From: an uncultured Clostridia bacterium
GTDB taxonomy: Bacteria; Bacillota; Clostridia; Christensenellales; Borkfalkiaceae
Assembly (NCBI GenBank): GCA_947625025.1
Contig: CANQMQ010000007.1
Coordinates: 14,117 to 78,116, forward strand
Length of the DNA: 64,000 bases
Reading direction: 5' to 3'
Part shown: positions 11,026-64,000 of the stretch, in pieces
Numbering within the stretch: position 1 is the first letter of the stretch
Layout of the letters: every line of letters starts with the position of its first letter
The notes under the pieces: generated by a model
The model's database searches: none
What the model saw: only the letters and a program-made list of their open reading frames with translations
Told to the model about the DNA's origin: nothing
Position numbers and translations under genes: made by a program

Positions 11026-11385
11026 AGTAGAGCTCGGGACCCCTTGGCGGGACCTCCCGATGGCAGTACGGCAGGCTCCCCCCACATCAAACGTCCTGCC
11101 CGTGGGCGTGAAGGCAGCCTTGTACAGCCAACTGCGGAAATTTTCCATTACGGCTTCGAAGTCGAGCCCGCATCTTGCAATGGCATCCATCGCACAGAGG
11201 GACATGCTCGTATCATCCGACCAGGCTCCCTTGGGGAAAGATTTGCCGTAGAAGGGTACCATGTCCGAGAGAGGGTAGCGATCGCGCACCTCCCGCTCCT
11301 GAAATTGCACGGGTCCGCCAACCGCATCCCCCACCGCATGCCCGATCACGATTGCCCGAATCTTCTCAAAAAATCCTGCTTGCAT
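10987..11385 (-). pseudogene. truncated ADP-ribosylglycohydrolase-family gene (N-terminal ~115 codons only)
   Basis: IGHAVGDAVGGPVQF, GAWSDDTSM and FDVGG match the ARH family N-terminus. Family members are ~250-350 aa. Homology stops near 11045 and the frame ends inside repeat R1. Confidence 0.6.
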
Positions 11386-15331: not shown

Positions 15332-15412
15332 GTTCTCTCCCGCACCCCCTGTTCTATTATGATGCACTCTGCCTGTGATATTTGCACACTTGCATTCCTC
15401 TGACGCAATTTG

Positions 15413-15441
15413 ATTATATCACACCTTAGCCCATAAATCAA
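15413..15441 (-). promoter_or_regulatory. extended -10 promoter of the 1294-aa lipoprotein gene
   Basis: Minus strand reads TTGATT-17 nt-(TGA)TATAAT. Confidence 0.55.
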
Positions 15442-15574
15442 GCCCTATTCCGAATTCCCGTTGTAACCATCTACACCGAGGCGCATTGTATAAAAATACT
15501 CACTCAATCGAGAGAGTATTCGGTGAACAGATTGACGCCCTCTCATCTTGAGGCTCCCGCGGCTGAGGGGAAGC

Positions 15575-23360: not shown

Positions 23361-25315
23361 AGTACCTTGATTATACCATTCCCGAAGAAAAATATCAAGC
23401 CCCCTGCTCCATCTCCCACAAACAAATCGGCGCCCAAATCGTGGGGATGCGCGAAATCGAACTCCACGACGACGCCCTCCGCCTGCAGGGAGACCTTGTC
23501 CCTCGTCTCAAAGGTGAAGAGAAGCCCTTTCACGTCCACCCTTTCAGCGAAGGTCACCTCCGTTTGGGTGAAGCCCGTCCCGATCGCATCGCGGGCGTAG
23601 ATATCCTCGGTCTCGAGGAAGGCGGCTACGTTGATGCCGTCGAGTTCATCCTCGGAGAGCACGAGCACGGCGTCGAGGGTGCCACCATAGCGATGAGAGA
23701 GGAAGGTGCGGCAATCCGCATACGAGGCCCCGCCGAGGAGCAAGACGTGGGCGTCCCTCGTCTCGATGAGGGCGGCATAGCCGCTACGGCCCTCGTAGAC
23801 CACCCCCTTGCCTCCCATAAACACCACATTTTCAAGGGTGACGACGGCGGCGAACAGCACACAGACCACCCCCGTCAGCACGGCCCGCAGTACCCCCTTC
23901 ATGCGTACCCGCCCCGAGAGCAGGGTGCTCCCCGCAACAAAGAGGGAGAGCCCCGCTCCGAGCGAAAAGCCCGTCACCACCCACGAAAAATCCTCTGCCG
24001 CAAACACGAAGAGCAGGAGGGAGAGCACCCCCTTTGCGGGGATCAAAAAGACGAAGCCCGCGGGCGGGATGATGAGGGCAAGGAGGGCGGAGAGGAGTAC
24101 GGTGAGGAAGAGCACGGGCAGGAGCGGAATGAGCACGAGGTTCAAAAGGAACCCCCACGCGGAGAAGTAGCCGAAGGTCTCTAAGAGAATGGGTGCGGTG
24201 AAGAGCTGCACGGAGAGGTTGCCGCCGAGGTACCCCGCGAGCCTTGCGGGGAGCTTGATTTTCCTGAATACGCGGGTGAGCGGCCCCGCAAAGAGGGCGA
24301 GGGCAACGCAGGCCCCGAAGGAGAGGCGGAAGCCCGTAGAGAGCCAATCGGCGGGATTGATGAGCAGGATGATGAGTGCGGCAAGCGAAATGGATTCCAA
24401 GAAATCGTACTTCCTCCCCCGCATGCGGTAGGCGCCGAGCACCGCACACATGAGGACGGCCCGCACCGAGGAGACCGTAAACGAACAAAATGCCGTGTAG
24501 AGTACGGCGAGGGCGATGGCGGGGAAGTATGCCTTACGCCCGAGTTTTTTGAAGATGAGGAGGGCGGCCCCGAACAGGATGCCGATGTGGAGGCCGGATA
24601 CGGCGAAGATGTGGGCGATGCCGCCCGCACGGATCTCCTCGGAGAGCCCCTCATCGAGGGCGGAAGAATTTCCCGTCAGGAGTGCGAAGGCGACCTCTGC
24701 CTCCGTCCCGCCGAGGTCCTCTTTAAGGCGGTCGTAGAGGGCGGAGTTCAGCCGCAACAAGAAATTCTTGGAGACATCCACCGCCCTATATTCGGTAACA
24801 TACGCCGTATAGCGGATATCGCGGTAGAATTCGTAAGCGTCATTTTCGGACATGGGTAGCCCGTTTCTCTTCACGTTGCACTCGAAGGCAATGATATCCC
24901 CCGCCCGCACCTCTTCGGAAGTGATGCTCGCACGGAGGAGCCCATCTGCCTTCGCACCGTCGAACATCAGCTCATCGAGGAGCGCGGAGGAGTAGCCGTT
25001 CTTCACGGTGAAGGAGACCACGGTGCCCGTCACCGTGTACTCCCCCGCCTCCTTTCCGCTCTGATAGCGGGCGGTGTAGAGGTGGCTGAGCCCCGCACCC
25101 GCGCCGCCGAAGAGGAGCAAGGCGAGGCCGATGCAGAGCAGCCGCTTCTTATCGAAGGGCGGGAGGATCAGGAGGAAGAACAGCCCGAAGAAAAGGAAAT
25201 CCGAGGGCAGAACGCCCCCGAATGCGATGCGAAAGTATAGAAAAATCCCGAATATGAGCGAGACGGCAGCGAGCAGGAAGATGCGGAAGTTGATGCGCGG
25301 AAGTCCCCTGTTCAT
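23357..25315 (-). CDS. comEC: competence channel protein ComEC/Rec2 with degenerate C-terminal MBL-like domain
   Basis: Polytopic protein. Competence-domain motif GIAHIFAVSGLHIGIL. The C-terminal region aligns to the MBL fold, but the HxHxDH site reads SEDELD. Confidence 0.85.
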   Translation of the reverse strand: MNRGLPRINFRIFLLAAVSLIFGIFLYFRIAFGGVLPSDFLFFGLFFLLILPPFDKKRLLCIGLALLLFGGAGAGLSHLYTARYQSGKEAGEYTVTGTVVSFTVKNGYSSALLDELMFDGAKADGLLRASITSEEVRAGDIIAFECNVKRNGLPMSENDAYEFYRDIRYTAYVTEYRAVDVSKNFLLRLNSALYDRLKEDLGGTEAEVAFALLTGNSSALDEGLSEEIRAGGIAHIFAVSGLHIGILFGAALLIFKKLGRKAYFPAIALAVLYTAFCSFTVSSVRAVLMCAVLGAYRMRGRKYDFLESISLAALIILLINPADWLSTGFRLSFGACVALALFAGPLTRVFRKIKLPARLAGYLGGNLSVQLFTAPILLETFGYFSAWGFLLNLVLIPLLPVLFLTVLLSALLALIIPPAGFVFLIPAKGVLSLLLFVFAAEDFSWVVTGFSLGAGLSLFVAGSTLLSGRVRMKGVLRAVLTGVVCVLFAAVVTLENVVFMGGKGVVYEGRSGYAALIETRDAHVLLLGGASYADCRTFLSHRYGGTLDAVLVLSEDELDGINVAAFLETEDIYARDAIGTGFTQTEVTFAERVDVKGLLFTFETRDKVSLQAEGVVVEFDFAHPHDLGADLFVGDGAGGLIFFFGNGIIKVL

Positions 25316-27970: not shown

Positions 27971-28137
27971 CCCTGCTCCTCCTTTTTTTTGAGTATACCA
28001 CACAGCCGCCGCTTTGTCAAGAAATTCCCTTCGGAAAAGGATTTTCGGGCACCGTTTCGGTTCTTTTTGCAAAATGAGTTGTGCTCCGCACAAAAATATG
28101 ATATAATAGGAAAAAAGAAACGTAGTGAGGTAGTGCT

Positions 28138-28758: not shown

Positions 28759-28764
28759 CGGATC

Positions 28765-28842
28765 GGGAATGAGATTTCTCCACGCGCCGCCTATGGCGGC
28801 TTGGTCGAAATGACACAATCAGAAGCGGCGTTCGAAATGACA
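28765..28842. repeat. modular palindromic repeat locus R2
   Basis: Reverse-oriented S1 (GAGATTTCTCCACGCGC...GGTCGAAATGACA) plus CAGAAGCGGCGTTCGAAATGACA. Lies between the stop codon and the terminator. Confidence 0.8.
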
Positions 28843-28859
28843 AGCCGAATATACAAGCA

Positions 28860-28896
28860 AGCCCCTGCGGTGCCGCGCACCGCAGGGGCTATTTTT
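28860..28896 (+). terminator. intrinsic terminator between convergent genes
   Basis: AGCCCCTGCGG-loop-CCGCAGGGGCT followed by ATTTTT. Confidence 0.8.
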
Positions 28897-28924
28897 CTCT
28901 CTTATCCCCTTGCGATGCGGGCCG

Positions 28925-31900
28925 CTATGAACCGCGCCGCACGTTGATTTGCCAATACTCGCCCTGCGTCGTGGTATAGCTCCCATCCTGCTCGGTGAGC
29001 AGGGAGACGGTGTAGATGGTGCCATCCTGTGCGGTGACCTTCCACACATTCTTACTCACCACATCAATGGACTTTATCGCAACGAAGGCGTAGTCGCCGT
29101 CGCTATCGGTGAGGGCAAGTGCGGCAAGGCTTACGGTTGTAGCGTCGCCGTTATGATCCACGAAGAAGTTTGCAAAGCAAGCGGCGTTTTCGAAGGTGCC
29201 GAGCGCCTGTTTTACCTCGTGTTCGGTGACCGTTGCCGTCTTTGTATCCCCCGCGGTAACTTTGATCTCATACAGCTTGCCGAGGTTGCCGCGGTCCTCC
29301 GCGACGTCGTAGTCTCCGAGTTCGAGCACCCAGCCGCTCGTGCCGTCCGCATTGACGAGGGCGTTGTAGGCATACACGACTTCCTTGTCCTCCCCTACTG
29401 TTTTGTAGAGGGTGTAGGCATACGGGGTGCCCTTTTTCACCCAATTCGGGAAGGTGTACCCCTCATCGGCGTAGTAGAAACTTGCGATGCCGACCTCGTA
29501 GCCGTTATTGGCGGAAACCTTCTCATACGTTGCCACCATGTACAGCCAATAGTCGCCATCGTACTTGTGATACTGCACGGTGTACTGCTTGTTGTTGTAA
29601 GTGAAGATCGCAGAGTAGCGGGGGCCCATCGAGGCATCGCTATAGAGCACTTCCTCGATCTTGGCATTTGTAAACGTCATGGTCTCGCTCCCCATATGCA
29701 GGGTGCCCGAAGCCGTAGTGGCGTTGATGCGGATGGGGCCGAAGCCGATGTAGTTCTCTACAATGAAGCTCCGCTGTGCCTCGGGCAAATCGTTCTCAAA
29801 GCCATCGTACATCTTCGTCTCCACGGTGCCGCCCGCAACGGTGATGGTGCTGCTGCCCTTCGGGTTATAGGTATAGGTGACGAAGGGTGAGTACTCATAG
29901 ATGACGGGGTTGTAGAGCGCGAGGCCATGCCGTGTGCCCGAACCATCGACATAGCTGTTGACGACCTGATAGCCGTTGTACGGCGTATTATCGATCTTAA
30001 GCGTCGCATTCGCGTAGAAGCGGGGCTCTCCATCGGGGGTGAAGGTGAGTGAAAGGGTGTATTCGGTATTCGCCCCCCCGTTCTGAATGGTAACCGTACC
30101 ATTGAAGGTGACACTCGTTCCCGCCGTCCATGCGTAGTAGGTGTTTTTCTCCACCACGCAATCGGTGCCCGCCGCGGGTGCGGCTGCGGTGATCTTCTCA
30201 TAGGAGCCCGTATCGGCATCCCCCGCATCCACATAGAGCACGAGGTTATTGCCGTCGATATAGTAGTACCCGTTCCTATCCGCATCCTCATCGGCGTAGT
30301 AGAGGTAGCCGCCGTTGTCGAAGATGAGCGGACGGAAGTTGCTATCGTAGAAGGAGCGCTGGGTGGAATACGTCTGCGGGCGGGTGAGGGTGTGGTTTTC
30401 CCCGTCGAGCTTGAAGTTGAGGTACTCAAAATCCTCGGTACGGAGGGAAATGAAGCCATCATCCGCATCCACGACGTCGTAGTAGACGGTGACGCCCGCA
30501 CTGCCGTCTGCGGCATAGTAGGTACCGCTGTCGAAGCCGTCTAAATAGAGCACCGACCAATCCGCTCCCACAAAGACGCCGCGGGCATTCTCATCGCATA
30601 CGACGAGCGCGCCCTCTCCATATGAATATGCGGCGACGTACGTGATATAATCTCCCTCGTCGATGGAGAGGAACATCTCTACTTCACGGGTCTCGACGTC
30701 GAGGACGTTGTATCTTCCGTCCCCGATCGTCCTGCCTGCCGAACTTGTATCCTTGACGATAATGTTACTGCGCCCATCGAATTGGAGATTGAGCCATTCG
30801 CCCTCGAGGAAGATGGGGAAGGTGCCCACGATGCCGTCCAACAGTTCGAAGGCAGTCCCGTCGAGGGAGAAGTAGAGATGGCTCCCGTCCTCCGCCTCAA
30901 AGACGAGGGCGTCTTCATCGATTGAATATTCCCCGCTTACGGGGCCGCGGGCGTTGGTGTACGTCGCGGAGCAGAATCCGTCCGTTTTCAGGGTATCGCT
31001 GCCCGCCGTGTACGTCTTATCGAAGCTCGCATTGTAGCGGGTGAATACGGTGACACGTACCCATTCCACCACATCGTAGTAATCGATTTCCCGAAGGGCT
31101 ATTTTTGCGGGCATGCCGCTCGGAGCCGTTGCACCCTCTTCGGGGACGAGGTTGTATACGGTAGCCCCCGAGGCCGCGGTGCCGTCCGCCACGAGGGTGC
31201 AGAGGACCTTGTCGTCCTGCGCCTCTTCGAAGCCGTTCTCCGACCAATACGCCTCATTCCCGCGCAATACGAGATGGGCGGTGGTGTCGAGCGACCCAAG
31301 CCCCTCGTATTCGAATACGGCGTACTCCTCTTCCTCGAGGAGCTCATAGTAGGTATGCGCACCGCTCCCATCCGTGGTGATCTCGAAGCAGAGCTCCTCC
31401 ACCGATTGATTGCTCCCCGTGCCCTTCACATAGAGGAAGTAGCCGTAGGTGCCGAAGATGGAGCGGGTGCGGAGGCCCGAGCGGTCGATGGAGAAACTGC
31501 CGAGGGTGGCGTTTCCGTTCTCATCGAAGTAGAGGGTGCCGATCCCCGAGACGGGCAATTCGACGAACCAAATGGTATTCTTGGGGGCGGAAGCATCGCC
31601 CGTATCCGTCTTTTTGTTGACGTCCGTGATCTCGGTGTAATTCTTTTCCGTTCTCGCACTGTTTCCCGTGCCGTAGGTGAACTCAAATACGTAGTAGAGT
31701 TCGCGGGTGAAATAGCTCGAATCGTAGGCGGAGGAGAGCATGAAGGTGATCTTCGAAGGGACATCCCCTTCCGTAACTTTGATTTGGGTGGCAACGAAGG
31801 TGCTGAGGGTCACTCCCCCGCCCTGCAGGGCAGTTTCGGTGTAGCACCCATCCGCCCCGACGGTGTAATTCAAAGGATCCTTCTCGTCCTGAAGGAGGAG

Positions 31901-33880
31901 CTCCGCCTTCTTCGCGCCCGTCACCCCCGATACGGTCACATCCGTATCGTAGAGGGCGAGCGTCATGGCGTAATCGAAGTTTTGGCTGATGGGGCTGAGC
32001 TGCACGTATTCGACGTGGCTCGCCTCCTCGGCGACCGTGAACGTCTTATTTGTCAAATCGATCTTGTAGCGGAGGACGGTCTCGGAAGCTCCCGTCTCCC
32101 CCGTTCTGAAGGTGCAGACGGCAAAGAATTCGCCGCGGGGCGACGCATCGATATAGTAGTAGCCCTGCTTGGAATTTTCGGTATGCGCGGGATCGGTATA
32201 GATGGCGCTATCGGGGAAGGCACGGTTACCATCGAGTTCGAGGGTCACATTCTCGCTGCCTTCGAGTTTATACGTCCCCCCTTCGGGTTTGGGTTCGATG
32301 TAGACGCTCGTCTCCGCATCGAAGGGAAGGGTGTAGAAGCGCATCACGAAGTGCCCATCTTCATCGACATCGTAGCCGAGCAGGTCCCTTGCCTGATTTA
32401 ACATATCGGTAAGGACGGCGTAGACCTTATACGCGATAATGGTTTCCCCCGTCAATGCGGAGAGCTCGTAGCCCTTATCCACGTAGTAGTGGCCTTCAAA
32501 GATATCGTAGAAGGTGATGTTGCCGTAGCCATCGAGCATGAGGCCGCCCTGCCCCAAGTTGCCCGAACTCCCGTCCCCCGTAAGGAACTCCGAATAGCGG
32601 TTGCCCTCTCCGATGGAGCTCGCATAGTAGTATTGGGAGCCGCTCGTCGAGGTTTGGAAGGTGAAACTGTTATTTTCGTTGTCCGTGCAGAGGAAGAGGT
32701 ACTCCGAGGAGGAGACTTCGCCGTCGATATCGACGGCGGCCCCGAGGAGCATGACGACGCCCTTATCGGTATGGGCCGCGTTCTTTTCATCCCGATAGCT
32801 GCGCGTTGCGGTGCCGTATTCATCGACGACGAGGGTATCCGTGGTGACGGCGGGGTAATCGCAGCTGCCCGTTTCGGGATTGAGATAGGTGCTCTTATAG
32901 ATATAGGTATGGGCGAGGTCGGGATTTTTGAAGGCGTAGGTGTAGTCCTCCTCGAAGATCTTTCCCTCGAGTTTGCTCTCATTGGGGAGGGTAAATGTGA
33001 TGCTATCCCCGGACATGGTACCCTCAAATTCCTTCATCCCCCTGCGGAGCAGCACAACGCCCTCCTGCCCTTCGGGGACGAAGATATAGCTCGTACTGCC
33101 GAAGCGGTCCATGTAGCCCTGCTGCCATTTGGCATACAGAATGTGCATGGAAGAATCCGAAATGACATCCCCGGGATGATAGACGACGGAGCCTCCGGGC
33201 GAGGCCGACCAACCGAGGAAGCGGTAGCCCTCCACCGAGAAGCCGTTTTCGGCTACGGTCATTTTGCCGCCCGCATCGGGGTAGGTGGGCGATACGGAGC
33301 CCTGCACGGTGGCGGAAGCATCGGGCGCATTGCCCTCATAGAGGAGCACGGCCGAGCTCGATGAGGCGCTGTAATACAGCTTCATCACGTTTTCGGAAGC
33401 GGTCGCAGAGAGCGCGGGAAGGCTCGCTACCGTCCCCGCACGGGTGGCATCATAGACGTACCCCGTGATCGCGGGCGGGGTAGCCGCAACCGCGGCCCCC
33501 ACGTAGTCGCTTCCCGTATACGAACGCTCGGCATCGGGCACCGTGGCATTCCCGAGGTAGACCTCCACCGTGTAGCCCACCTTGTATTTCGCCGTGAGCG
33601 TCATGGGGGCGGCGGGCATCGTCTTATCGGAGGCGAGTTCGGCGTTGCCATCGAACCATGCCCCGAAGGTGAGCCCCGATTTTTGGGGTACGAGGTCCTT
33701 CACGGCATCCGAAATATTTGCCCCCTCCTCGAGTTCGAGGGAGGAAACGGAGAGCGTACCGCCATCCAAATCGAGGGAGAGGGTGTACGTCTTGCCCTTA
33801 TTGCATGCCGCGAACACGGCAACGCACAGCGTGACTACGAGCAAGGGCAAAAGATAGAATGCCTTACGGATAGATTTCAT
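28925..33880 (-). CDS. 1651-aa surface lipoprotein with N-terminal InlB B-repeat modules
   Basis: Lipobox VAVFAAC. Includes YTLSLDLDGG...GLTFGAWFDG...LTAKY and a second B-repeat (GYRFLGWSA...LYAKW). The long Y/T/G/D-rich remainder is not recognised. Confidence 0.85.
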   Translation of the reverse strand: MKSIRKAFYLLPLLVVTLCVAVFAACNKGKTYTLSLDLDGGTLSVSSLELEEGANISDAVKDLVPQKSGLTFGAWFDGNAELASDKTMPAAPMTLTAKYKVGYTVEVYLGNATVPDAERSYTGSDYVGAAVAATPPAITGYVYDATRAGTVASLPALSATASENVMKLYYSASSSSAVLLYEGNAPDASATVQGSVSPTYPDAGGKMTVAENGFSVEGYRFLGWSASPGGSVVYHPGDVISDSSMHILYAKWQQGYMDRFGSTSYIFVPEGQEGVVLLRRGMKEFEGTMSGDSITFTLPNESKLEGKIFEEDYTYAFKNPDLAHTYIYKSTYLNPETGSCDYPAVTTDTLVVDEYGTATRSYRDEKNAAHTDKGVVMLLGAAVDIDGEVSSSEYLFLCTDNENNSFTFQTSTSGSQYYYASSIGEGNRYSEFLTGDGSSGNLGQGGLMLDGYGNITFYDIFEGHYYVDKGYELSALTGETIIAYKVYAVLTDMLNQARDLLGYDVDEDGHFVMRFYTLPFDAETSVYIEPKPEGGTYKLEGSENVTLELDGNRAFPDSAIYTDPAHTENSKQGYYYIDASPRGEFFAVCTFRTGETGASETVLRYKIDLTNKTFTVAEEASHVEYVQLSPISQNFDYAMTLALYDTDVTVSGVTGAKKAELLLQDEKDPLNYTVGADGCYTETALQGGGVTLSTFVATQIKVTEGDVPSKITFMLSSAYDSSYFTRELYYVFEFTYGTGNSARTEKNYTEITDVNKKTDTGDASAPKNTIWFVELPVSGIGTLYFDENGNATLGSFSIDRSGLRTRSIFGTYGYFLYVKGTGSNQSVEELCFEITTDGSGAHTYYELLEEEEYAVFEYEGLGSLDTTAHLVLRGNEAYWSENGFEEAQDDKVLCTLVADGTAASGATVYNLVPEEGATAPSGMPAKIALREIDYYDVVEWVRVTVFTRYNASFDKTYTAGSDTLKTDGFCSATYTNARGPVSGEYSIDEDALVFEAEDGSHLYFSLDGTAFELLDGIVGTFPIFLEGEWLNLQFDGRSNIIVKDTSSAGRTIGDGRYNVLDVETREVEMFLSIDEGDYITYVAAYSYGEGALVVCDENARGVFVGADWSVLYLDGFDSGTYYAADGSAGVTVYYDVVDADDGFISLRTEDFEYLNFKLDGENHTLTRPQTYSTQRSFYDSNFRPLIFDNGGYLYYADEDADRNGYYYIDGNNLVLYVDAGDADTGSYEKITAAAPAAGTDCVVEKNTYYAWTAGTSVTFNGTVTIQNGGANTEYTLSLTFTPDGEPRFYANATLKIDNTPYNGYQVVNSYVDGSGTRHGLALYNPVIYEYSPFVTYTYNPKGSSTITVAGGTVETKMYDGFENDLPEAQRSFIVENYIGFGPIRINATTASGTLHMGSETMTFTNAKIEEVLYSDASMGPRYSAIFTYNNKQYTVQYHKYDGDYWLYMVATYEKVSANNGYEVGIASFYYADEGYTFPNWVKKGTPYAYTLYKTVGEDKEVVYAYNALVNADGTSGWVLELGDYDVAEDRGNLGKLYEIKVTAGDTKTATVTEHEVKQALGTFENAACFANFFVDHNGDATTVSLAALALTDSDGDYAFVAIKSIDVVSKNVWKVTAQDGTIYTVSLLTEQDGSYTTTQGEYWQINVRRGS

Positions 33881-33904
33881 ATGAACTCCTTGATGTTACA
33901 TTCC

Positions 33905-33991
33905 GTCATACTGAGCGGAGGCACGAAGTGCCGAAGTCGAAGTATCACAACATTATAATGCGGTGATGTCTCGACTACGCTCGACATGACA
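33905..33991. repeat. modular palindromic repeat locus R3
   Basis: S2 (GTCATACTGAGCGGAGGCACGAAGTGCCGAAGTCGAAGTATCAC) followed by GTGATGTCTCGAC...CTCGACATGACA. Fills the gap between two lipoprotein genes. Confidence 0.85.
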
Positions 33992-34000
33992 TATCGAGAA

Positions 34001-41759: not shown

Positions 41760-41811
41760 TTTGATTCCTCCATGTTTTCCCTTCCCGCTCCGCGGGAGTT
41801 CTTTCCCCGTT

Positions 41812-41840
41812 ATTTTATCATATCTTTTTGCAAATTACAA
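41812..41840 (-). promoter_or_regulatory. candidate promoter of the NifU-like/GGGtGRT pair
   Basis: Minus strand reads TTGTAA-17 nt-TAAAAT (weaker hexamers). Confidence 0.4.
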
Positions 41841-41894
41841 GGGATTGACGAAAAAAATCCCGTCCCCGCTTCATATTTTCGGAATACGGCATAC

Positions 41895-42009
41895 CACATT
41901 ATAATAAGGTGATACATTCGACTTCGGCACTTCGTGCCTACGCTACTTCGCCCTACGGGCTCGTATCGCCGTAGTGGTTGCAGAATCGAGAGCGGCGAAC
42001 AGTATGACA
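41895..42009. repeat. modular palindromic repeat locus R4
   Basis: GTGATACATTCGACTTCGGCACTTCGTGCCT (inverse S2), then S4 (CTACTTCGCCCTACGGGCTCGT...GCAGAATCGAGAGCGGCG), then ACAGTATGACA. Confidence 0.85.
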
Positions 42010-42014
42010 ATTTA

Positions 42015-42047
42015 GGAAAAGGCACCCGTGCGGAGCACGGATGCCTT
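42015..42047 (-). terminator. intrinsic terminator
   Basis: Minus strand reads AAGGCATCCGTG-CTCCG-CACGGGTGCCTT followed by TTCC. Confidence 0.7.
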
Positions 42048-42067
42048 AGACTTTGTATACAATAATA

Positions 42068-42997
42068 TTACTCTGCAGTGTTGCCGCTTGCGGGAGGCGT
42101 ACCCTTCTTGAATTCGAACATATCCGCATCCCCCGCACCGGTAAGGGCAAGGATGCCGTATTCCGTCTTTACAAAAACGTACTGCACCGCTCCTTCCGCC
42201 ATGGCGACCGCATAGGCGCCCGTATAGAGGAGGGTGAATTCGCCCGTCATGCCGCCGCTGAGCGTCGCGGCCTTGCCGCTGATGTGGAGCGTATCGGTCG
42301 TCGTTCCTTCTTCCTGCATCCAATAGTCGCCGTCGATGTTGACATTTTCGGGCAGGGGCTGATACGTCATGGGATATCGATCTCCGCCTGCCTGTGACGG
42401 GGTGACGAACGTGAGCGTCTTATCCGTTTCGCTCCATATGAGTTTGACGCCGTTGAAATCATAGGTACCGGGTGTATTCGCGTCTTCCACTGCAACAGCA
42501 CAATCTCCCATTTGCAGAGGTTTCGCGGAGGGATTCGTTTCACCCGGCTTCATGGTTCCCACCATTGTTACCAAAATACCCGTATCGCCCGTATCCTCGG
42601 TGATGGTGAGCTCATACGTAACTGTGCCGGGTTGGTTTGCGCTGCCGATTTCTACGTCACACGTCCATACACCGTAGAGCTGAGGCTGAACTTCCCACTG
42701 CGCCTTCAACGTGACGTTCTTCGCGGGCATTTTGAAAGTGGCGCCTGCGGCGATGTCGGTTGTGCCGTCGTTCCACTTCGTGAAGGCATACCCTGTGCGG
42801 GTGAAGGTGGTGGCGGGCTTTACGGTGACCGTTGCCCCCTCCTCGTAACTTTCGACTGCGGGAGCGGTCCCCGTGCCGCCGTTGGCTTCGTAGGTGACCG
42901 TGTACTTGACGGGTTCCTCGTCGCCGCCGCATGCCGCGAGGGCGCAGAGCGAGACTGCCATGAGCGCCGCCAATACGGCGCTGATGAATTTCTTCAT
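42068..42997 (-). CDS. 309-aa lipoprotein with InlB B-repeat module
   Basis: Lipobox CALAAC. YTVTYEANGGTGTAP...GYAFTKWNDG...VTLKAQWE. GGAGG RBS at MKKFISA (42997). Confidence 0.8.
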   Translation of the reverse strand: MKKFISAVLAALMAVSLCALAACGGDEEPVKYTVTYEANGGTGTAPAVESYEEGATVTVKPATTFTRTGYAFTKWNDGTTDIAAGATFKMPAKNVTLKAQWEVQPQLYGVWTCDVEIGSANQPGTVTYELTITEDTGDTGILVTMVGTMKPGETNPSAKPLQMGDCAVAVEDANTPGTYDFNGVKLIWSETDKTLTFVTPSQAGGDRYPMTYQPLPENVNIDGDYWMQEEGTTTDTLHISGKAATLSGGMTGEFTLLYTGAYAVAMAEGAVQYVFVKTEYGILALTGAGDADMFEFKKGTPPASGNTAE

Positions 42998-43040
42998 ACT
43001 ATCCTCCAAACTGTGATTTTGGCCTTTAGGCCTGACTTCT

Positions 43041-43067
43041 ATTATATCACCCCCCCCCGTTTGTCAA
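43041..43067 (-). promoter_or_regulatory. promoter whose spacer consists mostly of a G9 tract
   Basis: Minus strand reads TTGACA-AAC-G9-TGA-TATAAT, a 15-nt spacer with an extended -10 TGn. C9 at 43050..43058 is confirmed by the track translation (ITPPR = atc acc ccc ccc cgt). Confidence 0.55.
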
Positions 43068-43125
43068 GCACTTTAACCATGTTTTTGGAAATTTTCGGAA
43101 AATTTTTTTGGAATAAAAAAATCGC

Positions 43126-43268
43126 CCCCTCCTCTCACTACGTTACTTCGCCCTGCGGGCTCGTGTCACGCTTAGAAGTAACAGAAGCCTCGCGTGTGCG
43201 GGATGAGGGGATGGGGCGGGTCATGATGAGAAGGGAGCTGTCATTTCGAGCTTGCCGAGAAATCTCAT
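43126..43268. repeat. modular palindromic repeat locus R5
   Basis: S4 variant (GTTACTTCGCCCTGCGGGCTCGTGTCACGCTTAGAAGTAAC...), G-rich S5, and a short S1 (GTCATTTCGAGCTTGCCGAGAAATCTC). Abuts the yhbY stop codon. Confidence 0.85.
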
Positions 43269-44850: not shown

Positions 44851-44856
44851 GCCTTG

Positions 44857-44885
44857 AGTATACCAAATTTTCTTCGACTTTGCAA
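44857..44885 (-). promoter_or_regulatory. sigma-70-type promoter ending 6 nt before the obg ATG
   Basis: Minus strand reads TTGCAA-17 nt-TATACT-CAAGGC-ATG. Confidence 0.5.
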
Positions 44886-44944
44886 GGGATTTTTACGGCC
44901 GTTTAGGAATGTCCCCTCCGCTCTTCCCGTGCTCTCCGTGCGGC

Positions 44945-46192: not shown

Positions 46193-46430
46193 GAGATACT
46201 TCAACTCCGCTTCCTCTCACCCCCTGCGGGGGTTACTTCGCCCTGCGGGCTCGTGTCACGCTTAGAAGTAACAGAAGCCTCGCGTGTTCGGGATGAGGTT
46301 CGGGGCGGGATGAGATGAGGAGCGGGGTGAGGTTCGGGATGAGGGAGGAGGACGGTGCTTCGCCGCGGGGCGCAAGGAATTCTCTCTCCTCCTCATCCCG
46401 AACACAGTGAGGGGACGGATGAGGGGTGGG
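46193..46430. repeat. modular palindromic repeat locus R6
   Basis: Partial S2, a 67-nt S4 copy (46232..46298), then a G-rich S5 array with hairpin CGGGATGAGGGAGGAGGA...TCTCCTCCTCATCCCG. Confidence 0.85.
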
Positions 46431-50640: not shown

Positions 50641-50850
50641 TGAGAAGCCTCGTTCTCTCGCCCTCGCTTCGCTCGGGCTACTTCGTCGCTACGCTCCTCG
50701 TGCCGCCGCAATGGCAGCAGAATCAGAAGCGGCGTTCGGAATGAGGATGAGGGCGGAACTTCGGGATGGGGAGAGAGTATTATAAGGGGGAGGGCGAATG
50801 CCTGTCATTTCGAATGCTCCATTCCCTCGCCTCATTCTTCTCGTGCGGGA
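50641..50850. repeat. modular palindromic repeat locus R7
   Basis: S4 variant (GCTACTTCGTCGCTACGCTCCTCGTGCCGCCGCAATGGCAGCAGAATCAGAAGCGGCG), G-rich S5, and partial S1 (GTCATTTCGAATGC). Confidence 0.8.
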
Positions 50851-52169: not shown

Positions 52170-52192
52170 GTCTCAATTCTCCCGTAACTTGA

Positions 52193-52221
52193 TTATACAA
52201 TACGGGCGGGGATTTGTCAAG
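52193..52221 (-). promoter_or_regulatory. sigma-70-type promoter
   Basis: Minus strand reads TTGACA-17 nt-TATAAT (consensus). Confidence 0.7.
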
Positions 52222-52233
52222 ACCTTTCACAAA

Positions 52234-59295: not shown

Positions 59296-59808
59296 ATGAA
59301 AAAAGTTGCCGTGATCCTATTGCTTCTCACAGCCCTCATCGTTTCGGTATGCCTTTTCGCAAAACCCCGAGAGGAGACCGCTTACCTTCGTATCCACATC
59401 CGTGCCGATTCCAATGAGGCGGTCGCACAGGAAGTAAAATATAAGGTGAGGGATGCCGTTGTGGAATACCTCACCCCCACCGTTGCCATGTGTAAGACCA
59501 AAGAAGAGGCAAAAACCGCCCTCTCCAAGATGCTTGGCGGCATCGAGAAGAAGGCGGAAACCGTGTTGAAAGAGAATGGATTTGATTACGGTGCACGGGC
59601 GTCGCTCAAGAAAGAGGAGTTCCCCACCCGAATCTACGACGGTGTGACCCTCGAGGCGGGCGTATACGATGCCCTCATCGTGGAACTCGGCTCGGGCAAG
59701 GGAGATAATTGGTGGTGCGTCGTCTACCCTCCCCTCTGCTTCTCGGGCACCTCCAACGTCACCTACCGCAGCCTCATCGCCGAACTCATCAGAAAGTTCT
59801 ACGAGTGA
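59296..59808 (+). CDS. spoIIR: stage II sporulation protein R
   Basis: N-terminal anchor, then YLRIHIRADSNEAVAQEVKYKVRDAV...WWCVVYPPLCF. AAGGAG RBS at 59296. Confidence 0.8.
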   Translation: MKKVAVILLLLTALIVSVCLFAKPREETAYLRIHIRADSNEAVAQEVKYKVRDAVVEYLTPTVAMCKTKEEAKTALSKMLGGIEKKAETVLKENGFDYGARASLKKEEFPTRIYDGVTLEAGVYDALIVELGSGKGDNWWCVVYPPLCFSGTSNVTYRSLIAELIRKFYE

Positions 59809-59818
59809 GGAGAAGCTT

Positions 59819-60032
59819 GTCATTTCGACCGAAATGAGCGTAGCGAATGAAGCGGAGAAATCTCCATTCTAAATCGTCATACTGAGCGCAGCCGAAGTAT
59901 CACCGCATTTTAAGAATAATGTGATACTTCAACTTCGCTTCGCTCCGTTCAGTATGACATAATGAGAAGTCAGAGATGTCTCGGCTGCACGGCTTCGCCG
60001 TTCCGCTCGACATGACACCCCCCCTCATCCCG
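59819..60032. repeat. modular palindromic repeat locus R8
   Basis: S1, an 83-bp S2/inverse-S2 palindrome (59876..59958), S3, and CCTCATCCC. Lies between convergent spoIIR and degV. Confidence 0.9.
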
Positions 60033-60040
60033 CTATCTAT

Positions 60041-60895
60041 CTATTTTTGATAGAAGGCGACGCCGATGGCGTTGGGGCCGATATGCGTCCCGATGGCACT
60101 TCCGATGAGGCGGGCGGGAATGCTATCCGCATCGCGGACATGCCCCTCCCAAATTGCATGGCTATCCTGCAAATACTTCTTAAGATATGCATCGGAGAGC
60201 CCCGAATACATCAGCCCGTAGGGCATCGTAAAATCGATTCCCCCGCACTTCTCCACGAGTTGCATCAGCAAGTTGTTGCTCCGCTTGCTCCCGATGGCCT
60301 TGCCAACAAGTTTCACTTCCCCGCCGATCACAGATACGACGGGCTTCACCGAGAGCATCTCCCCCGCAAGTGCGGCCACACCCGAGATCCTTCCCCCCTT
60401 TCTGAGGTATTTGAGGGTATCGACGACCGCGATCACCCGAATCTTCTCCCGCTTCTCCTGCAGTTGGGTTACGACGGCCTCCGCATCCATACCTTCTCCG
60501 ATGAGGCGGAGGGCGTATTCACACAGGATCCGCTCCCCCGTGGCGGCATTGAGGCTATCCACCACGTGCACCTTTCCCGAAAACCGCTTGGCGGCAGTGC
60601 GGGCGCAGTTGAACGTTCCGGAAAGTTTGGAAGAAATGGTGATGGCGATCACCTCACTCCCATCCGCGGTGAGCGCTTCAAACGCCTCCTCCCAGCGGTA
60701 TTCGTTGATTTGGCTCGTCTTTGGAATTTCATTTTCCTCGATGAGCTTCTCGAAGAACTGCCTGTGCGAGAGGTTGACGCCGTCGAGAAAGGTCTGTTCC
60801 CCAAAGCGTACCTCCATCGGGATCATCGTAATTCCCATTTGCTCCGCTTCCGCCTGTTCGATATCGGAAGCGCTATCTATGAGTATCTTTATCAT
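60041..60895 (-). CDS. DegV-family fatty-acid-binding protein
   Basis: MIKILIDSASDI...FLDGVNLS..QFFEKL...TSQIN.... About 284 aa. Start at 60895. Confidence 0.85.
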   Translation of the reverse strand: MIKILIDSASDIEQAEAEQMGITMIPMEVRFGEQTFLDGVNLSHRQFFEKLIEENEIPKTSQINEYRWEEAFEALTADGSEVIAITISSKLSGTFNCARTAAKRFSGKVHVVDSLNAATGERILCEYALRLIGEGMDAEAVVTQLQEKREKIRVIAVVDTLKYLRKGGRISGVAALAGEMLSVKPVVSVIGGEVKLVGKAIGSKRSNNLLMQLVEKCGGIDFTMPYGLMYSGLSDAYLKKYLQDSHAIWEGHVRDADSIPARLIGSAIGTHIGPNAIGVAFYQK

Positions 60896-60952
60896 ACCAA
60901 ACCTCCGCGCCCCATGGGCGCCCTGCCGCACGTTCAGGTCAAATTGCCTGTA

Positions 60953-60981
60953 ATTATACTATGATACAATTTTCTTGTCAA
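60953..60981 (-). promoter_or_regulatory. sigma-70-type promoter of degV
   Basis: Minus strand reads TTGACA-17 nt-TATAAT (consensus). Confidence 0.7.
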
Positions 60982-61013
60982 CGAAAAGGGGCGGCCCGAG
61001 GCCTGCCCCTTTG
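60982..61013 (-). terminator. intrinsic terminator of the GLUG-repeat gene transcript
   Basis: Minus strand reads AAAGGGGCAGGCC-TCG-GGCCGCCCCTTT followed by TCG. It lies 470 nt after the stop codon, beyond repeat R9. Confidence 0.65.
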
Positions 61014-61049
61014 AATTTTGTTTACATTTTTATCTAATTTTCACTTTCC

Positions 61050-61443
61050 TCTACCCCTCAAGACGAGGGCGCGTGTCATTTCGACCGAAATGAGCGAAGC
61101 GGGAAGGTCTGTCATTTCGAACGAAGCGAAGCGGAGTCGAGAAATCTCACTTCCAATCCGTCATACTGAACGAAGCGAAGCGGAGTTGAAGTATCACATT
61201 ATTCTTATGAATGCGGTGATACATTCGACTTCGGCACTTCGTGCCTCCGCTCAGTATGACATAATGAGAAGCCCAAGATGTCTCGGCTGCGCTACTCGCC
61301 CTGCGGGCTCGTGCCGCCGCAGTGGTTGCAGAATCAGAAGCGGCGCTCGGGGTGACAGGCCTGTCATTTCGAACGGAGCGTAGCGAATGAAGCGGAGAAA
61401 TCTCCATTCTAAATCGTCATACTGAGCGCAGCCGAAGTATCAC
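61050..61443. repeat. modular palindromic repeat locus R9 (largest)
   Basis: S5 hairpin, three S1 copies, a 101-bp S2 palindrome (61160..61260), S3, S4, and a terminal S1+S2 block identical to R8 over 68 nt. Confidence 0.9.
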
Positions 61444-61486
61444 ATTCTCTTTATAAATGATGGAGAGCCGTCGATAAGAATTTCCT

Positions 61487-64000
61487 TTATTCTTCGATGT
61501 TGATACCCGACTTCAAGCCGAAGAGTTCTCCCTGATTTTCACCCGTCGCCGTGACTTGCCCCGTCTGTTGATACTGTCTCAGCGACCCGACGGCGTTGCA
61601 ATCGGCGCTCCCCGCAATGCCGCCGACGAAGTCCTCACCCGCGATGTCTGCCGTGTTTTCGATAAAGGAAAGCATGATCTTGCACGAGGCGCGGTGCCCC
61701 CACTGTCCCGATGCGGTTGCAACGATATCCCCTGCGATGCCGCCGACGTACTGCGTCCCCGAGACCGTACCCGAATTGCGCCCGTTGGCAATCGTGAATG
61801 CAAGCGTTAAGTCGTCGTTTACTTGGAAGGCATTGTAGACGCGGCCGATGAGCCCTCCCACGTATTGTTTGCCCGAAATCGCACCGCTGTTTTTGAGGAG
61901 CGTGAAGGTGACGCTCCCGCCATAGGTGGTATACCCCGCGATGCCGCCCACGTAATCGGAGCCGCCCGCCGAGATCTCCGCCTCGTTGGAGCAATCGGTA
62001 AGCGTACCGTTCGAGTACCCGACGATGCCGCCCACATAGCGTCCGCCCTGCGTATAGAGGATGGGAACGGCGTTATGGCAGTTGGTAACGGAGTATGCCT
62101 GCCCCGCATACCCGCCGATGTAGGCATAATTGATCTCTCCTTCCGTGAAGAGGCCCGTGACGGTGAGCTGCGTCCCCGCGTTGGAGCAATCGATGAGGGG
62201 AATGCCCGCTATGACGCCGACGATGCCGCCCGCCCTGCTCTCCGCAGTGATATGCCCCGAGGAAGTAGCCGTAAGGGAGGAACCGCCGCCGTTTGCAGAG
62301 CCGTATCCGAGAATACCGCCGACGTACATTTTACCCGTTACGCTTCCCGCATTCGATAGGAACTGCCCGACGAATGCGCAGGCAGGATGGCCGCCCCATT
62401 CGCCGCCTGCCCAATTCTCCATATAACCGACATTGCCGCCCACGTAATTTTTGCCCGTGACGGCGCCGCTGTTGCTGAAATTCGTGAATCGGACGATGCT
62501 CGTACTATCGTAAACGGAAGTGTACGCCGTCTTGAAGTAGCCGAAGATGCCGCCGACGAAGTCTCCCGTTCCCGTAACCGCGCCGCTGTTTGTAAGGTTG
62601 GAATACGCTACGACCGAACCGCGATCGACTCTGCCGCAGATCCCGCCCACATAGCCGCCGCCCGAGACGGCGCCAAAGTTCTTGTTCCCGTCCATGGTGC
62701 CGCCCTTGAACGTGCCTACGATGCCGCCCGTGCCGTAATCGTAATCCATCACGGTGTAACCGGGAAGCGTGAGGACGTCTGCCCGATTCTCGCAATTTAC
62801 GATCGTTCCTCCGGACATGGTACCCGCAAATCCCGCCGCACTCATGACGACGAAGCCCTCCGAGGAGCCGCCCGAGATCTTACCGCTCCGAATGACGACG
62901 TTCTCGATCGTCCCCGTGAGCTCGCCGCAAATCCCGCCGATCACATAGTTCTTGGTGAATTCGCGGATATTGCCCGTGACGGTGAGATTCTCAAACACGA
63001 GGTTTCTCACCGCACCCGAAAGCGTGGTAAAGATGCCCGCATTGGCCTGCATGGTGACGGAGACGGAGAGGTTTCTCACGATGAAACCGTTCCCCTGCAG
63101 TGTGCCCGTGAAGGCAAAGGGCGTCCACGTCTTGCCCGAAAGATTGATGTTCGCGCCGAGAACGTAGTTGCCCGCGGGATCCTCCTGTATGGCAAGGAAG
63201 CCCTCTGCATCCTGAATGGTAGTTTTGCCGGACGCGTCGGAGTCCTGTTCGTAGTGCGCCACAAGCGTGACTGCTTTCTTTGTCGTCCAGACGGAGAGGC
63301 TTGAACCGTTCCCGTCCGTAAGTTTCTCTTCCTCGAGGAACCAACCCGTAAACAGCTGTCCCCGCAAGAAGGCGACGGGAAGGGTGAAGGCCTCCCCAAA
63401 GGTAAGTTCCACGGTCGTTTGCCGCTCAACACCGCCGTTATAGTCGAGGGTGACGGTATACTTGCGCGGCTCGAACCTTGCCTCGATGGCAACATCTTGC
63501 GCGGGCATGTTGAATGCGTACTCAAAGCCCGCATAGACGAGCTTTCCTTCCCGATAGAAGCCGAGGAAACTGTAGCCGTCCTCCGTTTGGTTGAGGAGTA
63601 CGGTGACGTGCTCGCCCTCGATATACGTCTGCTCCGCAGTGACGGTGCCCGCGTTTTCATGGGAGAAGTTTACCGTAAGCGTGTATAGCTTATCATAGTG
63701 TGCGACGAGGGTGGCGGGGCCGTCCGTCCACGGCTCCAAGGAGACGCCGTCCTCGCCCGTGATCTTAGTATTCGATTGGGTATACCAACCGCCGAACCTG
63801 TATCCCTCCAATTGGGGGACACCGAATTCGCATTTCGTTCCGTATTCCACCGTCACGCTGTCTGCGGCGATCGAGCCGTCTAAGGCGTTGAGCGTAACCG
63901 TAACATCCTCCCCTCGCCACTTAGCATACATTGTGAAATGACCCGTCGTCCCCGGACGGAGAACGGAGACGGGCATATCCGAACAATCTTCCTCCATACA
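61487..64000 (-). CDS. large surface protein with InlB B-repeat modules and more than 10 GLUG-motif repeats; 5' end outside window
   Basis: B-repeats (EGYRFGGWYTQ, GYSFLGFY, LFTGWF...TLVAHYE), then repeated YVGGIAG/YVGGLIG/FVGGIFG/RAGGIVG units. The ORF is open to the window edge. Confidence 0.8.
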   Translation of the reverse strand, partial: CMEEDCSDMPVSVLRPGTTGHFTMYAKWRGEDVTVTLNALDGSIAADSVTVEYGTKCEFGVPQLEGYRFGGWYTQSNTKITGEDGVSLEPWTDGPATLVAHYDKLYTLTVNFSHENAGTVTAEQTYIEGEHVTVLLNQTEDGYSFLGFYREGKLVYAGFEYAFNMPAQDVAIEARFEPRKYTVTLDYNGGVERQTTVELTFGEAFTLPVAFLRGQLFTGWFLEEEKLTDGNGSSLSVWTTKKAVTLVAHYEQDSDASGKTTIQDAEGFLAIQEDPAGNYVLGANINLSGKTWTPFAFTGTLQGNGFIVRNLSVSVTMQANAGIFTTLSGAVRNLVFENLTVTGNIREFTKNYVIGGICGELTGTIENVVIRSGKISGGSSEGFVVMSAAGFAGTMSGGTIVNCENRADVLTLPGYTVMDYDYGTGGIVGTFKGGTMDGNKNFGAVSGGGYVGGICGRVDRGSVVAYSNLTNSGAVTGTGDFVGGIFGYFKTAYTSVYDSTSIVRFTNFSNSGAVTGKNYVGGNVGYMENWAGGEWGGHPACAFVGQFLSNAGSVTGKMYVGGILGYGSANGGGSSLTATSSGHITAESRAGGIVGVIAGIPLIDCSNAGTQLTVTGLFTEGEINYAYIGGYAGQAYSVTNCHNAVPILYTQGGRYVGGIVGYSNGTLTDCSNEAEISAGGSDYVGGIAGYTTYGGSVTFTLLKNSGAISGKQYVGGLIGRVYNAFQVNDDLTLAFTIANGRNSGTVSGTQYVGGIAGDIVATASGQWGHRASCKIMLSFIENTADIAGEDFVGGIAGSADCNAVGSLRQYQQTGQVTATGENQGELFGLKSGINIEE

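Follow-up and report, generated by a model that had tools for sequence, protein, structure and literature searches.

GA-bulged hairpin repeats in the intergenic DNA of an uncultured Clostridia bacterium: a probable variant of the CGTC-tagged REP/SRM elements and putative sites of Ssn-type nucleases

What are the short palindromic repeats that occupy nine intergenic loci in the genome of an uncultured Clostridia bacterium, and which enzyme, if any, acts on them? The repeats lie in contig CANQMQ010000007.1 at positions 14,117-78,116, a stretch of 64,000 nt that we call the window; all coordinates below are window positions. Its gene content (SpoIIR, YpeB, a SleB-like hydrolase, SpoIIE, ComEC, Obg and DegV) is that of a spore-forming member of the Clostridia, and the nearest named homologues of its DegV come from metagenome-assembled genomes of Christensenellales and Clostridia. 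A sequence-only reading of the window had described the loci as assemblies of five short modules, S1 to S5, belonging to a family that it did not recognise. We consider it probable that the nine loci hold a single family of single-stranded DNA (ssDNA) hairpin repeats, a GA-bulged variant of the CGTC-tagged repetitive extragenic palindromic (REP) and Ssn-related motif (SRM) elements, and that these hairpins are nicked, when single-stranded, by a nuclease of the Ssn family. The GA-bulged architecture, the wide phyletic range including gut Clostridia, and the tie to one Ssn-like clade appear to be new.

The first step was to establish whether the loci are real. Units were mapped in the window by exact string search, with full, long-form and partial units counted. 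Repeats were present in all nine loci named by the sequence-only reading (10848-11025, 28765-28842, 33905-33991, 41895-42009, 43126-43268, 46193-46430, 50641-50850, 59819-60032 and 61050-61443; loci 1 to 9), and each of the 26 mapped units fell within them. The repeats cover 1657 bp, in agreement with the earlier estimate of about 1.7 kb, and make up 23% of the intergenic DNA of the window (1657/7147 bp). The whole window was also scanned, with filters off, by a covariance model of 87 short units, of which nearly all came from other genomes; matches with E<0.02 were confined to the nine loci, with none in coding regions, and thus the window has no locus beyond those listed. An assembly artefact, the outcome on which the earlier reading would have fallen, is ruled out, because same-strain contigs from other assemblies (L121, L290, L291 and L292) reproduce the repeats: loci 4, 8 and most of locus 9 recur in these independent contigs at 99.8-100% identity. 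Some of the same-strain contigs terminate within repeats. In one short-read contig (L292), positions 1-70 correspond to window positions 41899-41967, and the degV region is fused to the locus 4 repeat. This join is chimeric, at a shared unit, and illustrates how the repeats break or misjoin metagenome assemblies.

How many kinds of element do the loci contain? The five modules are not separate elements: S1, S2, S3 and S5 are versions of a single unit with compensatory triplets in the stem, S4 being a long structured loop within such units. In order, the unit consists of a (C/T)GTC or CCTC tag, AT, a triplet xyz, GA, a loop, GA, the complement of xyz, AT, and a C(T/A)C tail. The triplet is TTC in S1, ACT in S2, GTC or GTT in S3 (read on the other strand) and CCC in S5, which is CCTC-tagged. 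The foot of the stem has 5 bp, an A-T and a T-A pair and then three freely covarying pairs, and it is followed by a tandem G.A/A.G mismatch. Beyond this mismatch there are a second short stem of at least 2 bp and a GNA-type or longer structured loop, and the unit ends in the unpaired CTC or CAC tail. S4 is preceded in all four copies by a normal 5' half, and its internal hairpins are split by further GA/GA steps; it is a long-loop form of the unit: 41909-42009 and 61216-61261 are the same S2 unit with and without a 55-nt interior. In two chimeras, at 46193-46298 and 61276-61357, the triplets of the two halves are mismatched. All 26 window units have one of the three tags (CGTC in 5, TGTC in 16 and CCTC in 5), and the stem starts with AT in 25 of them, the exception being AC at 61276.

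The pairing is strongly constrained. A structure-aware pattern that demands the tag core, both GAs and a complementary triplet matched 280 units in the window and 120 fetched genome loci, with 18 different triplets, against 2 matches in shuffled sequence. In a search anchored on the tag, the GAs and the tail only, with xyz left unconstrained, the triplets were complementary in 86 of 87 distinct 28-nt units. The gap-free alignment of 87 units has 98.2% of its cells paired, with compensatory changes at five of the seven pairs and 140 double-change cells; this level of covariation was reached by none of 500 shuffles, and no slid register came close. In a set of 363 distinct units from across phyla, where loop length was taken as everything between the two GA pairs, the loops range from 3 to 53 nt with modes at 7-8 and 16-22 nt, and the loop-closing pair is Watson-Crick in 324. 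Positions that the searches did not enforce are conserved as well: T (82%) or C (14%), together 96%, at position -2 of the tag, G (97%) at position -1, and C (97%), T (88%) and C (70%) in the 3-nt tail after the stem, which reads CTC or CAC. A hammerhead or k-turn reading of the GUC...GA...GA core was rejected by inspection, there being no CUGANGA and no 3-nt bulge. A search of papers for the repeat strings returned only human primer matches.

The long hairpins proposed earlier at 59876-59958 (83 bp) and 61160-61260 (101 bp) are real by ssDNA folding: 59874-59960 folds with -18.4 kcal/mol (z -5.1 against shuffles) and 61158-61262 with -24.5 kcal/mol (z -5.2). The ATGACA/TGTCAT ends and the nested and mosaic copies were likewise observed, together with head-to-head hairpin dimers at 33904-33991, 59875-59959 and 61159-61261. 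Could such dimers, 85-105 bp long with inverted ends, be miniature inverted-repeat transposable elements (MITEs) that derive from insertion sequences (IS) with a DDE transposase and use TGTCAT...ATGACA as terminal inverted repeats? However, the commonest form across phyla is a single 28-nt unit, spacers and partners vary, and heterodimers occur. On direct reading the three dimers lack a target-site duplication (AAAT/TAAT, AATC/TAAT and ATTC/TATC), and no full-length IS with these ends was found in about 1.5 Mb of fetched loci. We regard a MITE origin as scarcely credible. The earlier comparison with REP elements or bacterial interspersed mosaic elements (BIMEs) stands, the arrays more exactly resembling Neisseria intergenic mosaic elements (NIMEs), whereas its alternative of a MITE system is hardly tenable, there being no target-site duplication at the three dimers and no parent IS in the fetched loci.

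Do the hairpins instead act in RNA, as transcribed 3' untranslated region (UTR) elements for mRNA stability, processing or termination, as was proposed for many REPs? Each of the nine loci is downstream of one gene or more, with none in a purely divergent promoter gap, and across the 120 loci divergent gaps are depleted of units about 2-fold, counted per gap. Furthermore, the tagged strand has 14 T.G mispairs against 4 C.A. This excess does not tell RNA from DNA, because DNA too tolerates G.T better than any other mismatch, and depletion from divergent gaps is expected from selection against promoter damage by any insertion; we treat RNA effects as secondary at most. The sequence-only reading had placed copies between a stop codon and its terminator and judged them probably transcribed. 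This is true of locus 9, between the stop codon at 61487 and the intrinsic terminator at 60985-61012, just upstream of the degV promoter, when the minus strand is read (the terminator closes the 3' UTR that holds the locus and is context, not repeat), but not of locus 4, where a unit lies past the terminator. Its proposal of a 3' UTR role is weak, since orientation relative to co-directional flanking genes is random in the 120 loci (56 same, 53 opposite). In locus 9 itself, five of the seven units are antisense to the transcript, and the G.A motif would appear in RNA from one orientation only. No Rfam family matched: at the gathering score only tRNA-Gly passed in the window, and a permissive scan of 59780-61500 gave only chance-level matches to microRNAs and small RNAs. 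Thus, RNA-level function is an unlikely explanation of the family, although the repeats may have a secondary RNA effect on individual genes.

If the units are DNA-level hairpins, do they belong to a known family? The sequence family had been called unrecognised, but the tag, the stem beginning with AT and the head-to-head dimers are defining traits of the CGTC-tagged REP superfamily with its families CGTC-1 to CGTC-4 (Di Nocera, De Gregorio and Rocco 2013, PMC3733652). In those repeats the tag (CGTC, TGTC or CCTC) is unpaired, the stem opens with A,T, a 3-nt tail follows, head-to-head dimers prevail and there is no dedicated transposase; they are known from five phyla, Firmicutes not among them, and include dRS3 of Neisseria and RPE-4 and RPE-6 of Rickettsia (PMC3733652). 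Chenal et al. (2025, PMC11893778) showed that the oriented form of dRS3, the Neisseria Transformation Sequence NTS (CGTCATTCCCGCGMAVGCGGGAATCYRG), is bound by SsnA, a 94-aa single-domain GIY-YIG protein. SsnA both binds NTS and cleaves just upstream of it in ssDNA only and on one strand only, and it influences natural transformation in Neisseria. An IS-like layout, with SRM repeats around the gene, was found for 71% of ssnA homologues (PMC11893778), genes of a single-domain GIY-YIG type (cd10448, about 95-105 aa).

The head-to-head hairpin doublets with conserved spacers are also REPIN-like, and the clusters are intergenic and mosaic, as would be expected of classical REPs or REPINs mobilised by a REP-associated tyrosine transposase (RAYT), a Y1 transposase of IS200/IS605 type. 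However, REPs associated with RAYTs carry a GT[AG]G tag, which is absent here, all window units having (C/T)GTC or CCTC. Published surveys found no RAYT flanked by CGTC-type repeats. As stated earlier from the sequence, the window has no transposase or RAYT gene, and no Y1 transposase was found among 59 window open reading frames (ORFs) scanned against Pfam. Clustering of the neighbour genes in the 120 loci gave no recurrent gene at the cut-off of at least 90 aa, which an Ssn gene below 90 aa would escape; the neighbour that does recur is a GIY-YIG nuclease gene. Mobilisation by a RAYT is therefore very improbable. An IS200/IS605-type RAYT had been suggested as the enzyme to seek, but in other genomes the units flank GIY-YIG genes instead. 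The enzyme to seek is rather a small GIY-YIG nuclease of Ssn type, because the units match the CGTC/SRM traits and surveys have linked no RAYT to such repeats.

Ssn proteins, first described in 2025, are to our knowledge the only site-specific nucleases that cut ssDNA exclusively. In a search of the 120 genome loci without the 90-aa cut-off, small GIY-YIG ORFs were found in two (L044 and L045), both single-domain PF01541 by Pfam and putatively of the cd10448 type. In the Mucilaginibacter locus (L045), head-to-head TGTCATTTCGA...GAGAAATCT dimers lie on either side of the 100-aa GIY-YIG gene (PF01541, E 8e-16); in L044, three units lie about 0.9 kb from the ORF. A larger sample was drawn from metagenomes with a DNA pattern for the AIxREKx(I/L)KxW motif, which gave 120 stretches with 93 Ssn-like genes. 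Within 400 bp of these genes the density of GA-type units is 0.85/kb, 10-fold that elsewhere (0.087/kb). Upstream units run with the gene more often than against it (29 vs 11), and downstream units against it more often than with it (27 vs 11); thus the tags face outward. (A DNA pattern based on YVGVTNDL, tried on viral contigs as an alternative Ssn finder, mostly returned phage homing endonucleases and was abandoned.)

The two kinds of repeat do not mix at these genes: GA-type units were nearby at 29, motifs of the published SRM pattern at 19, several of them identical to Neisseria NTS, and both at none. The signature after a conserved tryptophan differs accordingly, being WxRxKK in 26 of 28 proteins with GA-type units and WxRxWK in 18 of 18 with canonical motifs (Fisher p = 6.7e-11), and nearest-neighbour sequence similarity agrees with the motif class in 36 of 45 Ssn-like proteins. 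We read this as two putatively co-evolving classes of enzyme and site within one family. Clustering of the Ssn-like cores by the unweighted pair group method (UPGMA) gave no clean split of the two motif classes, so that the clade claim rests mainly on one signature position. Many of the Ssn-like ORFs (L170-L289) run into a reverse-oriented unit, where the ATGAC of the tag supplies a TGA stop; their C-termini then end in the unit, for example in ...DSSLRSE or ...KDFSLRSK.

What would the hairpins then do? When DNA becomes single-stranded, in replication, in repair or as incoming DNA, the tagged strand would fold. The folded unit may then be bound, and the ssDNA beside the hairpin nicked, by a small GIY-YIG protein of the Ssn family, a single-domain nuclease whose gene would lie elsewhere in the genome, as happens with SsnA of Neisseria on NTS; the tagged strand of TGTCATTTCGAGCGAAGCGAGAAATCTC as ssDNA is a candidate target for binding and cutting by an Ssn-like protein of the WxRxKK type. 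The repeats may have multiplied along with the nuclease gene as an IS-like unit-ssn-unit cassette, with later spread or reshuffling by recombination among copies. Together, cassette spread and recombination would explain why units form head-to-head dimers with conserved spacers, why half-units are joined into chimeras, why copies are nested and why dispersed blocks are nearly identical. A stronger version of this proposal is that GA-type hairpins are the sites of a second Ssn specificity class (WxRxKK) which recognises the G.A step and spans at least 12 phyla, and that in Clostridia they bracket surface genes and gate ssDNA recombination there. This version we put forward tentatively, as one that may well fail.

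Several observations weigh against the proposal that an Ssn-type nuclease acts on the window repeats. GA-type hairpins are putative Ssn sites by analogy with NTS, and a nuclease that has no ligase activity does not itself explain the copying of repeats. The stem triplet is mostly uniform near each ssn gene (for example TCT five times, TTC four times or CCT five times), whereas the window mixes four types, which would call for several nucleases or for a relaxed specificity. A GA-type unit lies within 400-500 bp of only about a third of the Ssn-like genes sampled, and among the 51 genes for which the sequence extends 400 bp each way, 13 have a unit on either side, and 9 have units on both. No GIY-YIG or Ssn gene was found in the window or in about 15 unit-bearing Clostridia loci of metagenome-assembled genomes (MAGs), and two profile searches for Ssn homologues gave Flavobacteriaceae and Enterobacteria in one case and Chloroflexota in the other, with no Clostridia. 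The published SRM motif, HGTCWYN(0-2)YYVSBRHN(0-5)WNVSBRGN(0-2)RNCYNB, matches none of the 26 window units; they fail it because of the tandem G.A bulge, and the single match to the pattern in the window is inside a gene and at chance level (shuffle mean 0.6). Finally, single units are not predicted to be stable from nearest-neighbour DNA energies (z +0.8 to +1.6). These parameters probably under-credit sheared G.A pairs and GNA loops, and weak single-unit energies in spite of covariation are the pattern expected of a shape recognised by a protein rather than of a self-sufficient stable hairpin.

Are the window copies still being multiplied, or are they remains? In the S1-form scan, which used one genome per species and gave at least 120 stretches, GA-type units were present in at least 12 phyla. 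The matches listed are from Clostridia, Bacteroidota, Chloroflexota, Planctomycetota, Verrucomicrobiota, Omnitrophota, Spirochaetota, Bdellovibrionota, delta-proteobacterial lineages, Coriobacteriia, Cloacimonadota, Dadabacteria and two groups of the candidate phyla radiation (CPR), and doublets with tags outward recur across these phyla. Within the window, three pairs of dispersed blocks are 95-99% identical (43142-43208/46232-46298, 59830-59903/61370-61443 and 59911-59958/61160-61207); the repeat blocks were grouped as families D11 and D13 and inverted pairs I1 and I2. In contrast, three sister species (DegV 78-79% identical) have no unit in 51 kb, in which the synteny differs from that of the window; the nearest DegV relatives on record are at most 80% identical, apart from identical copies of the window strain. 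The distribution is patchy and the copies look recent, and near-identical dispersed blocks together with unit-free close relatives argue for recent copying.

Two observations on individual sites touch this point. At the site downstream of rpsR, a more distant Clostridia MAG (L105, 3480-4010) has a 550-bp array 3' of the rpsR terminator, made of two tandem composites of about 270 bp with the same unit types; the orthologous site holds a different 180-bp array in the window and is a 65-bp gap with no units in a closer relative (L300). Separately, window 10900-10944 is 100% identical over 45 nt, including the 24-nt variable loop, to 4244-4288 of a Coriobacteriales (Actinobacteriota) MAG (L079). 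Such identity suggests recent horizontal transfer, or contamination of the bin.

The same comparison bears on the possibility that the units are orphan relics of a burst driven by an Ssn or another enzyme that has since gone, now shuffled only by homologous recombination and replication slippage. The 64 kb encode no nuclease or transposase gene of the kinds sought, many units are truncated or chimeric, enzyme loss was proposed in the literature for CGTC repeats, and ssnA is missing from 19% of SRM-rich genomes (PMC11893778). Against this, the 95-99% identity of dispersed blocks and the unit-free close relatives point to recent copying, and pairing and flanks are still strongly constrained. Relic status thus seems rather unlikely, and we prefer the reading in which an Ssn-type nuclease encoded elsewhere in the genome would act on the units.

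The individual units are as follows. Locus 1 has a CCTC-tagged S5 unit (CCC, loop GCGAAGC; 10850-10875, plus strand; core model match 10856-10872, E 0.015), the CGTC-tagged S1 unit (TTC, 24-nt loop; 10900-10945, plus) whose 45 nt are shared with the Coriobacteriales MAG, and two TGTC-tagged S3 units (GTT/GAC) on the minus strand, at 10956-10983 (with a T.G wobble; 32.1 bits, E 3e-6) and at 10997-11025 (model and string search). The last overlaps the 3' end of a truncated ADP-ribosylglycohydrolase ORF: this ORF, 10987-11385 on the minus strand, covers only positions 2-119 of the 287-position profile, takes its last codons from the unit, and is probably a gene truncated at the repeat cluster. 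At locus 2, on the minus strand, a TGTC-tagged S1 unit (TTC; 28770-28815; pattern, model and string search) lies within the broken loop of another TTC unit (28816-28842), of which the 5' half and the start of a long S4-type loop are seen, so that the two are nested. Locus 3 is a head-to-head heterodimer of a CGTC-tagged S2 unit (ACT; 33904-33948, plus) and a TGTC-tagged S3 unit (GTC; 33963-33991, minus; 30.8 bits). Locus 4 is the long-form ACT unit with the S2 foot and the 55-nt structured S4 loop (41909-42009, minus), beyond the terminator of a 313-aa Flg_new gene.

Locus 5 contains a CCTC-tagged CCC 5' half with an S4'-type interior (43142-43208, minus), 99% identical to 46232-46298 (family D13), and a TGTC-tagged S1 unit (TTC; 43239-43267, plus) that is the top model match (37.1 bits, E 1.6e-7) and ends 2 nt before the yhbY stop codon. 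Locus 6 comprises the chimeric long-form unit with a CCTC-AT-CCC 5' half and an AGT-ATCTC 3' half (46193-46298, minus), a run of partial CCTCATCCCG half-units (46299-46390, minus; the plus strand reads GGGATGAGG) and a CCTC-tagged S5 unit (CCC; 46391-46416, plus; 12.9 bits, E 0.4). At locus 7, a long-form unit (50657-50746, minus; model match 50661-50677) joins a CCTC-AT-TCC 5' half, an S4 loop and a CCC-GA-GCGAAGC-GA-GGG core, and the lone 5' half of a TTC unit was found by string search at 50803-50817 (plus). Locus 8 begins 10 nt past the spoIIR stop codon with a TGTC-tagged S1 unit (TTC, 26-nt loop; 59818-59865, plus). It continues with the dimer 59875-59959, of which the left arm is a CGTC-tagged (59875-59903, plus) and the right arm a TGTC-tagged S2 unit (59921-59959, minus), both with ACT and both seen by model and ssDNA fold, and with a TGTC-tagged S3 unit (GTC, long loop; 59973-60017, minus; pattern and string search).

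Locus 9 has, on the plus strand, the 5' half of a truncated TTC unit (61074-61109; model and string search) and a TGTC-tagged S1 unit (TTC; 61110-61149; 29.4 bits). The dimer 61159-61261 follows, with a CGTC-tagged S2 unit as the left arm (ACT; 61159-61197, plus; model and ssDNA fold) and a TGTC-tagged S2 unit with a 1-nt insertion as the right arm (ACT; 61216-61261, minus). Beyond it are the chimeric long-form unit with a TGTC-AC-CCC 5' half, an S4 loop and a GAC-ATCT 3' half (61276-61357, minus) and a tandem block of S1 (TTC) and S2 (ACT) (61362-61443, plus), the last 74 nt of which (61370-61443) are 97% identical to 59830-59903 (family D11).

Which genes lie beside the repeats? Five of the nine loci are in the 7 (of 29) intergenic gaps that adjoin surface-protein genes with Flg_new/InlB-B repeats (hypergeometric p = 0.016), namely the gaps 28759-28924, 33881-34000, 41760-42067, 43010-43268 and 60896-61486, and the surface-protein genes at 28925-33880 and 42068-43009 have repeats on both sides. 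In the other unit-bearing Clostridia loci, the only recurrent neighbour family is BspA-type LRR_5/Flg_new. This context recalls the NTS clusters at surface-antigen genes of Neisseria, by analogy; the sample is small and such families are abundant in these genomes. The ComEC competence-channel gene at 23357-25315, which adjoins holA, means that the genome has an ssDNA uptake channel, a point that bears on an Ssn-type role in transformation; RmuC (5258-6415) and SSB (9948-10382) are also encoded in the window. Two further sets of repeats are distinct from the hairpins. Family D8 (15410-15443, 27989-28022, 44854-44887 and 52189-52222) is a sigma-70-type promoter, TTGACA-17-TATACT, shared on the minus strand by several genes and unrelated to the hairpin repeats, and 61617-62663 holds diverged internal repeats with a period of about 120 bp in the gene of an 836-aa Flg_new protein (families D1 and D3), that is, surface-protein coding repeats.

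Why does it matter which enzyme acts on the units? The value of Ssn nucleases as tools hinges on enzyme/site pairs of differing specificity. If GA-type units are the site of a distinct Ssn clade, they would represent a new and very widespread recognition architecture, in which a non-Watson-Crick step is combined with 3 bp of stem that can be programmed freely. Since the published motif misses GA-type repeats, censuses of SRM and ssn undercount whole phyla (Bacteroidota, Chloroflexota, Planctomycetota, CPR and Clostridia). For annotation, GA-type units explain a large class of spurious 'hypothetical proteins', and they also explain contig breaks in metagenomes such as those of the same-strain contigs here. 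Conversely, should Clostridia lack the paired nuclease, the question of 2013 stands, namely how CGTC-type repeats multiply without an enzyme.

How closely, then, do the units resemble the known systems? With the CGTC REPs they share the CGTC/TGTC/CCTC tag, the A-T and T-A first pairs and the lack of a linked transposase, and their 3-nt unpaired tail corresponds in length but reads CTC or CAC; head-to-head dimers, often heterodimers with conserved spacers, predominate in both, and the sites are between co-directional and convergent genes. However, the published stems are uninterrupted over 8-9 bp with loops of 4-5 nt and a CCA tail, and the window units depart from that stem and loop; clusters are rare among CGTC REPs except in Neisseria and Wolbachia, whereas in the window they are the rule. 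REPINs with a RAYT likewise form a long hairpin from an inverted doublet that looks like the copied unit, but their tag is GT[AG]G and their enzyme is an HUH Y1 transposase instead of a GIY-YIG protein. The BIMEs of E. coli likewise combine short palindromes of both orientations into intergenic mosaics; they consist of GTAG-tagged REPs with a RAYT, and the window units differ from them in sequence and stem architecture.

NIMEs come closer in layout, since they too are intergenic mosaics in which short palindromes of both orientations alternate with other short modules, beside surface-protein genes; they are built of perfect dRS3 palindromes around RS elements, and again the sequence and the stem architecture differ. 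The SRM/NTS repeats share with the GA-type units the oriented hairpin, preceded by an HGTCAT tag and followed by an ATCYN tail, the hundreds of copies, nearly all intergenic and clustered round genes, and the inverted pairs with outward tags that flank a single-domain GIY-YIG gene of about 100 aa (for the GA-type, in other genomes). The GA-type differs in that its stem is broken after 5 bp by the tandem G.A/A.G mismatch, its loops vary in length between 3 nt and over 50 nt and include nested hairpins, and its tail is CTC where that of SRM/NTS is CCAG. In spite of these differences, one variant of the Neisseria site, NTSvar, has CGTCAT-ACT...AGT-ATC in common with the S2 form of the window.

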